A stretch of 3,657 nucleotides of DNA. Source: a virus. Lineage: Duplodnaviria; Heunggongvirae; Uroviricota; Caudoviricetes. The notes under the pieces are model-generated. The model was not told the DNA's origin, made no database searches, and was given only the letters and a program-made list of their open reading frames with translations. Within the stretch, counting starts at the first letter, position 1, and the number at the start of each line of letters is the position of its first letter. This document shows, one piece after another, positions 1 through 3,657 of the stretch. The position numbers and the translations under genes were made by a program. The stretch lies in IMG/VR virus record IMGVR_UViG_2534681938_000039. One strand, written 5' to 3'.

Positions 1-249
1 TGCCCCACGCAATTCATCAATTGCACAAACCAGCCGTTCACGTTCGACGTCGTTCATTTCTTCAAAACGCATCGTTGCGTGACGCTGTTTTAACTGCGCA
101 TGGAAGCAAACCGTTAGCCGTTCGCGTTCCATCATCTGATTATAATAATCACATGTATCCTGCCAGCGAGGGACAGCAAGATGCTTGCCAATTATCCGGC
201 GCATAGCTGCTGGCTGTTTTTCAACGAGATTGAGCGTCATCACTGTCAT
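1..249 (-). CDS. Partial early-operon protein, N-terminal 83 aa (MTVMTLNLVEKQPAAMRRIIGKHLAVPRWQDTCDYYNQ...), continuing beyond the window start. Position matches the orf78/B slot downstream of cox in P2-like phages; function not assigned.
   Basis: Hand translation of the minus strand from ATG at 249..247 gives an open frame with no stop down to position 1. A GGAGGG Shine-Dalgarno lies 7 nt upstream (about 257..262). The start overlaps the stop of the upstream small ORF (ATGA). Not in the ORF track because it is truncated by the window edge. Confidence 0.6.
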   Translation of the reverse strand, partial: MTVMTLNLVEKQPAAMRRIIGKHLAVPRWQDTCDYYNQMMERERLTVCFHAQLKQRHATMRFEEMNDVERERLVCAIDELRGA

Positions 250-416
250 TTCCAGACCCTCCGGCTTTTCAGAAAGGTCAGAGCCTTTTTTAACGGACTC
301 TGTTTTTTGGTGCGGATAATGATTCCCTTACGCCCCTTACCGTGGGTGATGGTGAAGTCAATCGCCCTGGGGCTTTCGTTACGCAATAACTGAGCAATAC
401 AACGAGGCTCATTCAT
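246..416 (-). CDS. Small basic hypothetical protein, 56 aa (MNEPRCIAQLLRNESPRAIDFTITHGKGRKGIIIRTKKQSPLKKALTFLKSRRVWK)
   Basis: ATG at 416..414 is preceded by AAGGAG about 6 nt upstream; that SD overlaps the cox stop codon. Its TGA stop (248..246) overlaps the ATG of the next gene (249..247). The ORF track starts it at an upstream GTG (440), which would overlap the cox 3' end; the ATG with SD is the more plausible start. Confidence 0.45.
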   Translation of the reverse strand: MNEPRCIAQLLRNESPRAIDFTITHGKGRKGIIIRTKKQSPLKKALTFLKSRRVWK

Positions 417-426
417 ACGGTTCTCC

Positions 427-702
427 TTAACGTGGTTCACCGAGACCTAACCACATCAACCAGCCGTCACGAATCTCTTTAGGACGGCTTTCATAAGCCA
501 GTTTTAGTCCGTTATTCCATGCCGGAAGGTATACCCAATATTCACCAGCACGCCCCGATACTGACTGAGGGTCAGTAATCTCAATAACTGGTAATTTCCC
601 TTTCTCAATCATGCCCCTTACAGCTCTTGGAGTTTTACCAATGAGTTTTGCAAACTCCTGATAAGGCACGGCATCAGTCACGCTTACAAGCTGTCTATTC
701 AT
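427..702 (-). CDS. cox: Cox-like protein of a P2-family phage (small DNA-binding excisionase / repressor of the lysogenic promoter), 91 aa
   Basis: 91-aa ORF divergent from the repressor gene and first gene of the minus-strand operon. Same length and position as P2 Cox. GGGAG SD upstream of the ATG at 702..700. Assignment rests on gene order and recalled family features, not on a search. Confidence 0.7.
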   Translation of the reverse strand: MNRQLVSVTDAVPYQEFAKLIGKTPRAVRGMIEKGKLPVIEITDPQSVSGRAGEYWVYLPAWNNGLKLAYESRPKEIRDGWLMWLGLGEPR

Positions 703-823
703 CTGCTACGATTCTCCCTTAGTGCTTCTAATGGCTCCTAATGGCTAATTATTGCCTAAAAGGATAACTCCAGAAGCACAACATTTCACACTATCAGCAA
801 GAAATTACGCAATCGGAGTAATT
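703..823. promoter_or_regulatory. Immunity switch region between divergently oriented cox and C; expected to hold the early (Pe) and repressor (Pc) promoters and the C operator
   Basis: 121-bp AT-rich intergenic region between the two start codons, containing a tandem direct repeat. In P2-family phages the two promoters and the C operators lie in this interval. Exact -35/-10 elements could not be assigned confidently by eye. Confidence 0.6.
727..746. repeat. Tandem direct repeat, 10-bp period (TCTAATGGCT / CCTAATGGCT); candidate C-repressor operator half-sites
   Basis: CTAATGGCT occurs at 728..736 and again at 738..746, a perfect 9/9 match. P2-family C repressors are known to recognise direct rather than inverted repeats. 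Confidence 0.5.
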
Positions 824-1123
824 ATGTCAATAGACGTTTCGGAGAAGTTGAAGCTAATCCGTGAATCTGAAAGGTTAAACCGTAAAGAATTCAGTGAATT
901 AACTGGTGTAGCCTACAGCTCACTTTCGAGCTATGAGAGCCGGTCAAAAAACGCTGGAGTTGAAGCCATAATGAAGGTCTTACAACATCCTAGATTTACT
1001 AAATATACTTTGTGGTTCATGACTGATCAGGTAGCTCCAGAAGCCGGGCAAATTGCGCCCGCTCTCGCACACTTTGGGCAAAACGAAACAACGTCGCCCC
1101 ACTCCGGTCAAAAGACTGGTTAA
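824..1123 (+). CDS. C: C-type immunity repressor of a P2-family phage, 99 aa, helix-turn-helix
   Basis: ATG at 824 with GGAG SD (815..818); TAA stop at 1121..1123. HTH-like segment (LNRKEFSELTGVAYSSLSSYESR). Same length and position (immediately upstream of int, same strand) as P2 C. The ORF track's 123-aa version starts at an upstream TTG (752) inside the operator region and is less likely. Confidence 0.8.
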   Translation: MSIDVSEKLKLIRESERLNRKEFSELTGVAYSSLSSYESRSKNAGVEAIMKVLQHPRFTKYTLWFMTDQVAPEAGQIAPALAHFGQNETTSPHSGQKTG

Positions 1124-1162
1124 CAATTTATCGTGAATATATTCATCACAAGTGCCTACTAT

Positions 1163-1185
1163 TGGTGGCTAAATTTCAGCCACCA
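1163..1185. other. Inverted repeat (TGGTGGCT, 7-nt loop, AGCCACCA) in the C-int intergenic region
   Basis: Perfect 8-bp arms at 1163..1170 and 1178..1185. No U-tract follows on either strand, so it does not look like a canonical intrinsic terminator. Confidence 0.3.
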
Positions 1186-1237
1186 CGAAAAAAGCGATTA
1201 GTAGTAGCAAAAAAAGTACCACTCGGAGGGTTTTCTG

Positions 1238-2251
1238 ATGGCAATCAAAAAACTCGATGATGGTCGATATGAAGTGGACATCCGCCCTACTGGACGTAAC
1301 GGAAAACGCATCCGTAGGAAGTTTGATAAGAAAAGCGAAGCTGTCGCTTTCGAAAAATACACGTTGTACAACCACCACAATAAAGAATGGCTATCAAAAC
1401 CAACAGACAAACGACGTCTGTCGGAACTGACACAGATCTGGTGGGATTTAAAGGGTAAACACGAAGAGCATGGGAAATCTAATCTTGGAAAAATTGAAAT
1501 CTTCACAAAAATAACGAATGACCCATGCGCATTTCAAATCACGAAATCCCTTATCAGCCAGTACTGCGCCACCCGAAGAAGTCAGGGTATTAAACCTTCG
1601 AGTATCAATCGTGATTTAACATGTATTAGCGGCATGTTTACAGCCCTGATTGAAGCGGAGTTATTCTTTGGTGAGCATCCTATCAGAGGGACAAAGAGGC
1701 TTAAGGAGGAAAAACCAGAAACAGGCTATCTCACACAGGAAGAAATAGCCTTACTGCTTGCAGCACTTGACGGCGACAATAAAAAGATTGCGATTCTTTG
1801 CCTAAGTACAGGAGCACGTTGGGGAGAAGCAGCTCGTTTGAAAGCAGAAAATATCATCCATAACCGCGTCACGTTTGTTAAAACGAAAACAAACAAACCA
1901 CGCACCGTCCCGATCTCAGAGGCTGTTGCCAAAATGATCGCGGATAACAAACGAGGTTTTTTATTCCCTGATGCTGATTACCCTCGCTTCAGACGAACAA
2001 TGAAAGCAATAAAACCGGATTTGCCAATGGGGCAAGCCACACATGCACTAAGGCACAGCTTTGCCACTCATTTCATGATTAATGGAGGAAGTATTATCAC
2101 GCTACAACGGATACTAGGTCACACGCGGATTGAGCAAACTATGGTTTACGCTCATTTTGCGCCAGAGTACCTTCAGGACGCCATTTCTCTTAATCCGCTA
2201 AGAGGTGGTACTGAGGCCGAGAGTGTCCACACAGTGTCCACAGTAGAGTAA
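1238..2251 (+). CDS. int: Tyrosine site-specific recombinase (phage integrase), P2 Int-like, 337 aa
   Basis: 337-aa ORF with GGAGGG SD 7 nt upstream. The C-terminal half carries the tyrosine-recombinase catalytic signature: R in TGARWGEA, H-x-x-R in HALRHSF, H in GHT and the nucleophile Y in TMVYAHF. It ends 80 bp before a P2-type att core. Confidence 0.95.
   Translation: MAIKKLDDGRYEVDIRPTGRNGKRIRRKFDKKSEAVAFEKYTLYNHHNKEWLSKPTDKRRLSELTQIWWDLKGKHEEHGKSNLGKIEIFTKITNDPCAFQITKSLISQYCATRRSQGIKPSSINRDLTCISGMFTALIEAELFFGEHPIRGTKRLKEEKPETGYLTQEEIALLLAALDGDNKKIAILCLSTGARWGEAARLKAENIIHNRVTFVKTKTNKPRTVPISEAVAKMIADNKRGFLFPDADYPRFRRTMKAIKPDLPMGQATHALRHSFATHFMINGGSIITLQRILGHTRIEQTMVYAHFAPEYLQDAISLNPLRGGTEAESVHTVSTVE
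2222..2242. promoter_or_regulatory. Tandem direct repeat AGTGTCCACA x2 (11-bp period); candidate Int arm-type binding sites overlapping the int 3' end
   Basis: Perfect 10-bp copies at 2222..2231 and 2233..2242. The reverse complement contains TGTGGACA, which I recall as the P2 Int arm-site consensus. Location in the arm next to the att core fits. Confidence 0.55.
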
Positions 2252-2330
2252 CGTTTAAGGGCTTTCAGTGGTAATTTATGCCGCTCAAACCCGCATTGTA
2301 CCGTTGAAAGCCCCTACTGGTGACACCCTA

Positions 2331-2357
2331 AATCTCCCTTACACGGGCTTATTTTTT
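2331..2357. other. P2-type phage attachment site core (27 bp)
   Basis: Reverse complement of 2331..2357 is AAAAAATAAGCCCGTGTAAGGGAGATT, which matches the 27-nt P2 att core as I recall it. It overlaps an imperfect dyad (GGGCTTAT 2345..2352 / ATAAGCCC 2362..2369). Confidence 0.7.
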
Positions 2358-2401
2358 ATGCATAAGCCCTATCCCTGATAACCGTCTTCCATTGACCACA
2401 T

Positions 2402-2443
2402 TGAACCGCCCCGGGTTTCCTGGAGAGTGTTTTATCTGTGAAC
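2402..2443. repeat. Terminal inverted repeat region of the IS element (orfB-proximal end)
   Basis: Begins with TG and reads TGAACCGCCCCGGG..., which resembles the terminal repeat I recall for IS629-type elements. The partner repeat is outside the window, so the inverted-repeat relationship cannot be confirmed here. Confidence 0.65.
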
Positions 2444-3334
2444 TCAGGCTGCCAGATCATCGTTTCCGATGGAAGCATAATAAGCTTTTTCTGCTTCTGC
2501 CGGAGGAGTATGGCCCAGCCTTCCCAGCAATCGTCGATTGTTATACCAGTCCACCCACGTTAGTGTGGCCAGTTCCACTTCTGCACGGTTTTTCCAGCTC
2601 TTACGGTGTATTACCTCCGCTTTGTAAAGACCATTGATGCTCTCAGCCATCGCGTTGTCATACGAGTCGCCTGTACTCCCTGTTGATGCCAGTAATCCGG
2701 CTTCTTTTAGTCGCTCCGTATAGGCCAGTGACACATACTGAGAGCCTTTATCGCTGTGATGGATGGTGCCAGACGGACGACGGGCCCACAACGCCTGCTC
2801 CAGCGCATCCAGCACGAATGTCGTTTCCATAGACGATGAGACCCGCCACCCCACGATGTATCCGGCAAACACATCAATGATAAACGCCACATAGACGAAG
2901 CCCTGCCATGTGCTGACGTAAGTAAAATCAGCCACCCACAGCTGGTCAGGTCGTTCTGCCACGAACTGACGGTTTACGCGGTCGCCTGCGGCAACGGCTT
3001 TCCGGCTGATGGTCGTACGGACCTTTTTACCCCGGAGAACACCGGCAAGTCCCATAACCGCCATGAGACGTGCCACTGTACATCTGGCCACCCTGATTCC
3101 TTCCCGTAACAACTGACGCCAGACTTTACGCACACCGTACACCTGATGATTTTCATCGTATACGCGCTGTATCTCTCTCTTCAGCCAGTCGTCGTGCTGC
3201 GCACGGGCACTGCGTTTATCCGGATGATGTCGCTGTTGCTGACAATGGTAATACGTTGACGGGGCAATATGCAGTTCGCTGCATACCGGTCCGACCCCGT
3301 ACTGCTCACGCAGCTTATCCAGCAGTGGCATCAT
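2444..3334 (-). CDS. IS3-family transposase OrfB (DDE / integrase-core catalytic domain), 296 aa as an independent ORF; normally expressed as an OrfAB fusion
   Basis: Carries the D, D, 35-residue, E triad typical of IS3-family transposases: D in WVADFTYV, D in [10 protein letters not shown] in [18 protein letters not shown] stop at 2444..2446. Confidence 0.95.
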
Positions 3335-3657
3335 TTTTTCCAGAGGCGGTCGAACTCCGCCTTCGCAAAATAAGCGGAAGCCTGGCGAAGGATATCGTTA
3401 CTGCGGCGCAGTTCACGATTTTCACGTTCCAGCTCTTTCAGACGCTGACGTTCAGCGCTGGTGAGCCCACCATCACCGCCCCCGGTATCCCGCTCATGCT
3501 GGCGAACCCAGACACGCAGAGTCTCCGGCGTACAGCCAATCTTTGGGGCAATGGAACAAATTGCCGCCCACTGTGAGTCATATTCATCCTGACTTTCCAG
3601 AACCATACGAATCGCCCGCTGACGGACTTCGGGGGAAAAACGAGTATTTTTAGTCAT
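3331..3657 (-). CDS. IS3-family transposase OrfA (HTH and leucine-zipper-like N-terminal part), 108 aa
   Basis: Protein [26 protein letters not shown]... with a heptad-like [20 protein letters not shown] segment. Its TGA stop (3333..3331) overlaps the OrfB ATG (3334..3332). The start codon occupies 3657..3655, the window edge. Confidence 0.95.

Follow-up and report, generated by a model that had tools for sequence, protein, structure and literature searches.

A probable IS629 insertion in the bacterial arm of a P2-like prophage junction at locI of Escherichia coli, beside what is most likely the fossil of an older P2-like arm

For the excision of a P2 prophage, Int acts at the core and at both arms, P′ and P, with Cox beside P′ and IHF beside P. 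The arm-type sites of Int share a consensus, tgTGGaCa, that is common to P2-like phages with different cores (PMC3448106). Of the mapped copies of the insertion sequence IS629, 62% lie within prophages or prophage-like elements; the element makes target duplications of 3-4 bp, matching duplications were found at only 21 of 47 sites, and its insertion sites differ strongly among strains (PMC3271280). An IS3-family element has also been described in the neighborhood of the P2 attachment site locI. In evolved K-12, recombination between an IS3 in ogrK and an IS3 in gatD deleted the ogrK-yegR-yegS region, with a fitness gain via the loss of yegS (PMC3708739).

Here we analyzed a stretch of 3,657 nucleotides, referred to below as the window. 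A P2-like (Peduovirus) prophage is integrated here at locI, at the 3′ end of cyaR, in an O157:H7-type E. coli; the window shows its int-proximal junction, with the features listed in Table 1. The phage part differs from the end of the prophage in O157:H7 strain JEONG-1266 by one SNP and one indel across 2401 nt, and many other O157:H7 genomes match it at the same level. The substitution is an A versus G at position 175, in gene B, and the indel is a single missing A at position 1208, in the spacer between C and int. JEONG-1266 lacks the IS and carries a complete prophage of ~32 kb between yegR and cyaR/yegQ. Gene B, which is accompanied by a small orf in the window, has a Pfam Phage_RepB match in related loci; the cox gene is annotated as a cox family protein in O157, and the repressor is annotated in relatives as an HTH protein or as immunity repressor gpC. 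The exact integrase protein occurs in 19908 index blocks, with yegR following int in every locus read. Phage P2 itself matches the phage part at ~96% identity over 87% of its length; this 87% coverage of window positions 1-2358 comes as two pieces. The uncovered part probably falls within 700-1240, the C repressor/operator region, which suggests an immunity type unlike that of P2.

Table 1. Coordinates of the features identified in the window, with the evidence for each.
Feature	Position	Strand	Evidence or remark
Replication gene B, P2-like, 5′ part (exits window)	1..249	-	Equals O157 locus L001 4001-4249, within CDS 3749-4249
cox, excision directionality factor and repressor	427..702	-	Pfam Phage_Cox, E 1.7e-42
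C-type immunity repressor, 99 aa	824..1123	+	Pfam HTH_3
Tyrosine integrase, P2-type, 337 aa	1238..2251	+	Pfam Int_N and Phage_integrase
Int P′ arm-binding site	2217..2243	+	Transferred from NC_001895 annotation (L002 618-644)
Cox-binding region of attP	2241..2314	+	P2 annotation (L002 642-715), 100% identical sequence
att core, 27 nt, AATCTCCCTTACACGGGCTTATTTTTT	2331..2357	+	Exact match to P2 attP core
Host bacterial arm of locI (cyaR-yegR spacer), most likely a decayed IHF-site and P-arm fossil	2358..2401	+	Empty sites, P2 homology
Predicted target duplication CAT	2399..2401	.	Inferred; second copy would lie beyond the window
IS629/IS1203 (IS3 family), orfB-proximal end first	2402..3657	-	1256 of ~1310 bp
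IS629 orfB, DDE transposase domain	2444..3334	-	Pfam rve E 9.3e-28, HTH_21, rve_3
ALIL pseudoknot, IS3-family frameshift stimulator	3260..3376	-	Rfam RF01497, 121.5 bits
IS629 orfA, HTH	3331..3657	-	Pfam HTH_Tnp_1 E 2.4e-12

The attachment region is preserved on the phage side. P2 is matched at 100% identity throughout window positions 2200-2358. This stretch takes in the 3′ end of int together with the annotated Int P′ arm site, Cox-binding region and core, and two direct repeats of TGTCCACA (2224-2231 and 2235-2242) lie within the P′ arm site. The core corresponds to the last 27 nt of the K-12 sRNA gene cyaR, i.e. its 3′ end and terminator. We take the junction to be BOP′ (attL) in the POP′ nomenclature of P2, the opposite strand being shown here. 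JEONG-1266, the relative without the IS, shows the other prophage end: Rfam identifies a complete CyaR there (100.7 bits) with a match that spans the core, and after the core come the IHF site, the P arm and ogr. The genuine P arm of the prophage in the window should accordingly be at that other junction, beside ogr and cyaR.

Between the core and the IS are 44 bp whose origin determines what the IS has entered. The window is homologous to P2 no farther than 2358, and other Peduovirus genomes obtained from virions have departed from it by 2365. When the empty site was rebuilt by joining the cyaR side of K-12 to the flank from this window, the resulting order cyaR-core-flank-yegR was found uninterrupted in 4567 of the 5426 complete E. 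coli genomes searched, with 100% identity in Sakai and EDL933. IS-free O157:H7 genomes bearing the same prophage read ...CCATTGACCACAT/CGATAGAATC... and run on to yegR, whose stop codon lies ~114 bp past the insertion point, placing the IS downstream of yegR. All ten int-bearing loci that were read have the order int-core-flank-yegR, all without the IS. Because P2 homology stops at 2358, IS-free O157:H7 reads through to yegR and the empty site is widespread, positions 2358-2401 are host DNA, the bacterial arm of P2 locI, and not arm DNA of the resident prophage. The first-pass annotation had offered both origins for these bases, and its host alternative, in which the IS simply sits beside a prophage junction, is the one borne out by the end of P2 homology at 2358 and by the 4567 empty sites.

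Two database records named as phages were considered as evidence for a phage flank and rejected. vB_EcoM-720R8 (ON470606.1, L004) is a prophage prediction that runs into host yegR, yegS and gatR, and 'Phage TP' (AY639599.1, L005) is a K-12-type remnant locus that includes yegQ, there labelled 'putative protease'. Matches to either record can falsely imply phage origin.

The IS begins at 2402 with the IS629/IS1203 end TGAACCGCC..., its initial bases being TGAACCGCCCCGGG; its first base is the 45th past the core, which agrees with the earlier placement of a TG terminus at 2402, 45 bp beyond the core. Alignment with the empty O157:H7 locus (...CCACAT/CGATAG) puts the break exactly between 2401 and 2402, and ~150 bp of non-coding DNA separates the integrase from the IS. 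From 2402 to 3657 there are 0 mismatches in 1256 positions to an annotated IS3-like IS1203 copy of O157:H7 (L016), and many plasmid copies are likewise 100% identical. The L016 copy is ~1310 bp long, is annotated as an IS1203 family transposase with programmed frameshift, carries a pseudoknot annotated at the equivalent position and is bordered by GTT on both sides (a 3-bp duplication). Its far end reads ...CCGGGGCGGTTCA; the window, in which the visible IS end starts with TGAACCGCCCCGGG at 2402, leaves out the last 54 bp of the element. The orfA and orfB genes overlap on the minus strand, as in IS3-family elements that use a -1 frameshift. Every testable family feature was found, and the element is IS629/IS1203. 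No promoter-like site was created at the junction of IS and host DNA, where the single terminator-like match lies inside the IS inverted repeat.

It is likely, in our judgment, that an IS629 copy transposed into the bacterial arm of a P2-like prophage junction at locI, that the arm motif found there is a fossil and that the event is neutral for excision. Transposition would have followed the IS3-family route, with the DDE transposase supplied by a -1 frameshift. The point of entry would be separated from the core by 44 bp and lie ~114 bp downstream of yegR, with CAT as the probable target duplication. A simple insertion with target duplication, as we infer here, predicts a far junction of the form ...TTCCGGGGCGGTTCA-CAT-CGATAGAATCTCCC..., alternatively written ...GGGGCGGTTCA-CAT-CGATAGAATC..., leading into yegR. 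As a strain-specific polymorphism of IS629, the IS event is nothing out of the ordinary. Neither the whole window nor positions 2330-2480 were found at ≥80% coverage in any of the 5426 complete E. coli genomes. Searches of GTDB representative genomes and JGI metagenomes returned no match to the exact junction patterns, nor to the predicted far junction with a gap of 2-5 nt, and the two ORFs that span the junction were absent from the gene-position index.

Alternatively, the IS may be the scar of an IS-mediated rearrangement (IS629 recombination, or an adjacent deletion or inversion), in which case yegR would no longer be the next gene. With the last 54 bp of the IS outside the window, the target duplication is out of view, O157-type genomes hold ~17-28 matching places, and this very locus lost ogrK-yegR-yegS in experimental evolution after an inserted IS3 had recombined (PMC3708739). 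Matching duplications were seen at only 21 of 47 IS629 sites (PMC3271280). However, there is no sign of rearrangement in the window, where a clean IS terminus stands in otherwise unaltered host sequence, and we consider this explanation unlikely. Much less probable still is an assembly chimera, in which a contig of the IS629 repeat was misjoined to the prophage flank. The junction was present in no other public sequence searched and the window ends within the repeat, as such an artifact might produce, but the two parts meet precisely at the outermost base of the IS inverted repeat, as is expected of transposition and only rarely of a random misjoin, and the strong variation of IS629 sites between strains (PMC3271280) argues against it as well.

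Insertion of IS629 into host DNA leaves the arm-like motif to be explained. The first-pass annotation had noted TGACCACA at 2393-2400 as a near-match to the int-side TGTCCACA, and a position check agreed. The resemblance is in fact closer than had been claimed: of the two repeats in the annotated P arm of P2 (GTCCACAcatTGACCACAtcga), the outer one has exactly the sequence TGACCACA. The copy in the window, however, most likely belongs to a host-flank fossil. A 15-nt sequence around it, CATTGACCACATCGA, is identical in the P2 P arm and in the host flank, and the repeat sits within ~30-60 nt of sequence homologous to the P2 P arm. The frequency of the motif was uninformative: with ≤1 mismatch, the 8-mer TGTCCACA occurs 5 times in the window where 3.07 would be expected, and 5 or more also arose in 43 of 200 shuffles. 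The motif count was not significant and was dropped as evidence for an arm. We aligned host flanks locally with the 110 nt that follow the P2 core, using 2000 shuffles as the null. The O157 flank scored 20 (null mean 8.4, sd 1.4, shuffle maximum 16), the K-12 flank 23 (mean 8.3, sd 1.5, maximum 16) and the flank of Escherichia sp. MOD1-EC7003 28 (mean 8.8, sd 1.7, maximum 19). Unlike the 8-mer alone, the wider similarity is thus more than chance would give.

Several features distinguish this flank from a functional P arm. Such an arm would have at least two tgTGGaCa direct repeats and an IHF site between core and arm at the spacing of attP; here the outer repeat TGACCACA alone is intact, and an IHF site at that spacing is lacking. 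The inner-repeat homologue, at ~2382-2390, reads CGTCTTC(C) (..TCTTCC) where P2 has GTCCACAC, and it is decayed in all E. coli alleles, with the IS or without it. In the window allele the outer repeat lies at +36 to +43 from the core, whereas P2 has its outer repeat at +52 to +59 and its inner repeat at +41 to +48. The distance from repeat to core is therefore 16 nt shorter in the window/O157 allele than in P2 attP, and ~20 aligned columns of the IHF-site stretch are missing from that allele. IS629 is inserted one base past the TGACCACA repeat, splitting the fossil three bases short of the end of the 15-nt identity (CACAT/CGA).

These observations do not sustain the earlier proposal that the IS had entered the att arm of the prophage and had removed or displaced a second repeat. 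The IS-free allele, which continues as CGATAGAATC..., has no further repeat beyond the insertion point, the inner homologue lies upstream and is decayed in every allele, and the real P arm is at the other junction. The suggestion that a rebuilt empty site might prove to be ordinary host intergenic DNA without similarity to arm sites was right as to the host DNA and wrong as to the similarity. That 2358-2401 is an arm of this phage, or that the window comes from an attP-bearing phage genome, with IS629 disrupting a functional arm and impairing integration or excision, would fit the identity of TGACCACA to a genuine P2 P-arm repeat, the 15 nt around it that match P2 and the full-length match to vB_EcoM-720R8, the sole phage record to show one, but is scarcely credible when that record is a prophage prediction extending into yegR, yegS and gatR, the 44 bp occur at the empty sites of 4567 genomes, P2 and the other virion-derived genomes diverge at 2358-2365, the O157 allele is without the IHF-site stretch, with a decayed inner repeat and a core spacing 16 nt too short, and the true P arm lies at the ogr end, phage origin being already refuted.

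Comparison of empty-site alleles offers a history for the host arm. A long allele, carried by E. coli M160133 (L041) and Escherichia sp. MOD1-EC7003 (L037, minus strand, after the core at 661-682), aligns with the P side of P2-like phages; the match opens at the base next to the core, takes in the IHF-site stretch and extends to ...CATCGA (ATGCGTAATTCAATGAAACAGAAGGA... compared with ACGCGTAATACAATGAAATAAAAGGA... on the P2-like P side). The long-form query was covered at ≥80% in 168 complete genomes. An intermediate allele (MFDS1022581, L042) is missing ~8 nt, and the short allele of O157 and K-12 (L001 6359-6405) is missing ~20 aligned columns. The three look like successive stages in the decay of an IHF-site and P-arm module, and the decayed inner repeat that is common to all of them points to one ancestral relic. 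The same module is found in Wphi, fiAA91-ss and L-413C, which are P2-like phages with a different core. Its presence in phages with other cores indicates that it is phage-native and makes the reverse descent, in which a phage captured host DNA, unlikely. In E. ruysiae and Kluyvera, cyaR and the core are followed by unrelated DNA up to yegS, with neither such a flank nor yegR.

Judging from these alignments, the 'empty' locI is most likely the fossil of an older P2-like junction, consisting of core and P side, whose prophage body has been lost. The distribution of the module suggests descent from phage to host. The body of an older P2-like prophage would have been lost from locI, leaving a relic of core and P side that then decayed, and the bacterial arm of locI would be a decayed copy of a phage module whose long to short alleles still segregate in E. 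coli. Such a fossil would imply that P2-like phages have used the 3′ end of cyaR repeatedly. It also calls for caution, as arm-like motifs beside a core do not by themselves prove that the DNA belongs to the resident prophage. The arm likeness of the bacterial flank of locI is not mentioned in the literature searched (cyaR/P2 attachment site, ogrK/yegR), a search without the key papers of 1989-1992. It is conceivable, though improbable, that the TGACCACA repeat still binds the N-terminal domain of Int, which would give both the locI attB and the int-proximal junction some of the character of attP. If so, the repeat may contribute to the preference of P2 for locI or modulate excision, and IS629 would alter that.

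The gene yegR may have come with the older lysogeny event. No YegR homologues were found in phage genomes except in the two host-containing records, and the lack of a homologue in other phages means that there is no direct support for yegR as phage cargo. Together, yegR and the fossil have the appearance of an insertion confined to E. coli and its close clades. In E. ruysiae (L030, L032), a P2-like prophage is present at cyaR and its int-side flank leads straight into DNA upstream of yegS, and several Kluyvera species (loci within L019-L036) likewise have unrelated DNA after cyaR. Some E. coli loci (L006, L008 ~7255-7440) and MOD1-EC7003 (L037) contain an additional ~170 nt (TGAACCTAAAGCATTGGAAC...) that separate the flank hairpin from the stop codon of yegR; in MOD1-EC7003 the detectable yegR is a fragment of 22 aa only. 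Five loci of GTDB 'species' representatives for E. coli/S. flexneri (L018, L022, L023, L033, L034) were not relied on. They have many single-base indels in cyaR and yegR, with frameshifted tblastn matches, and look like error-rich assemblies rather than divergent species.

Two further core-like stretches were observed around locI. Just past the insertion point and directly after the arm homology, the O157 allele (L001 6409-6418) reads AATCTCCCTT, 10 nt that equal the first 10 nt of the core; in the window this stretch is displaced to the far side of the IS. K-12 has AATCCTCCTT at this place and other alleles differ as well; the likeness may be due to chance or may be the trace of a second, partial core. 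In K-12 (L003 ~5812-5832), the yegR-side end of the P2 remnant is a partial core, CTACACGGGCTTATTTTTTT, fused to a D′ fragment. The position of this partial core at the end of the remnant implies that the remnant arose by a deletion with one of its endpoints within the core on the int side.

With IS629 in host DNA rather than in the prophage arm, the anatomy of the junction allows a prediction for the prophage. The P′ repeats, the Cox boxes and the core of this junction are intact and P2-identical, the IHF site and the P arm are expected at the other junction, as in JEONG-1266, and 44 bp separate the IS from the core, which puts it past the annotated core site of Int. For these reasons the insertion is predicted to be neutral for excision, which would restore a usable attB with IS629 alongside. 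The earlier ideas of impaired excision and of prophage truncation through the IS are speculative, and the anatomy speaks against any effect on excision. For strain typing the insertion could be a useful marker, and deletions around yegR-yegS or the prophage end might start from it.

Four described systems come closest to this locus. Strain-specific IS629 insertions of O157:H7 involve the same element (100% over 1256 nt) and likewise lie next to prophage DNA, but the site found here, in the cyaR-yegR spacer 44 bp from the junction, is absent from the collections searched. The evolved K-12 case (PMC3708739) also represents entry of an IS3-family element into this neighborhood and demonstrates that such insertions can seed deletions; it differs in that the element here is IS629 and not IS3, in the cyaR-yegR spacer and not in ogrK, with no deletion visible. 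PR-X of K-12 (ogrK-yegZ) occupies the same locI and is also a P2-derived relic beside cyaR, one that keeps the core, the IHF site and the P arm. However, PR-X is coding, measures ~630 bp (ogr and a D fragment) and occurs in some strains only, whereas the fossil described here is non-coding, ~40-60 nt long, on the yegR side, present in essentially all E. coli and far more decayed; in K-12 this older fossil directly adjoins PR-X. Finally, the P arm of P2 attP shares TGACCACA and CATTGACCACATCGA identically with the bacterial flank, and the long host alleles align with it over the whole IHF-site and P-arm stretch. The window allele departs from that arm in that its IHF-site stretch is deleted and its inner repeat decayed, and, unlike a phage arm, it already exists in unoccupied sites.
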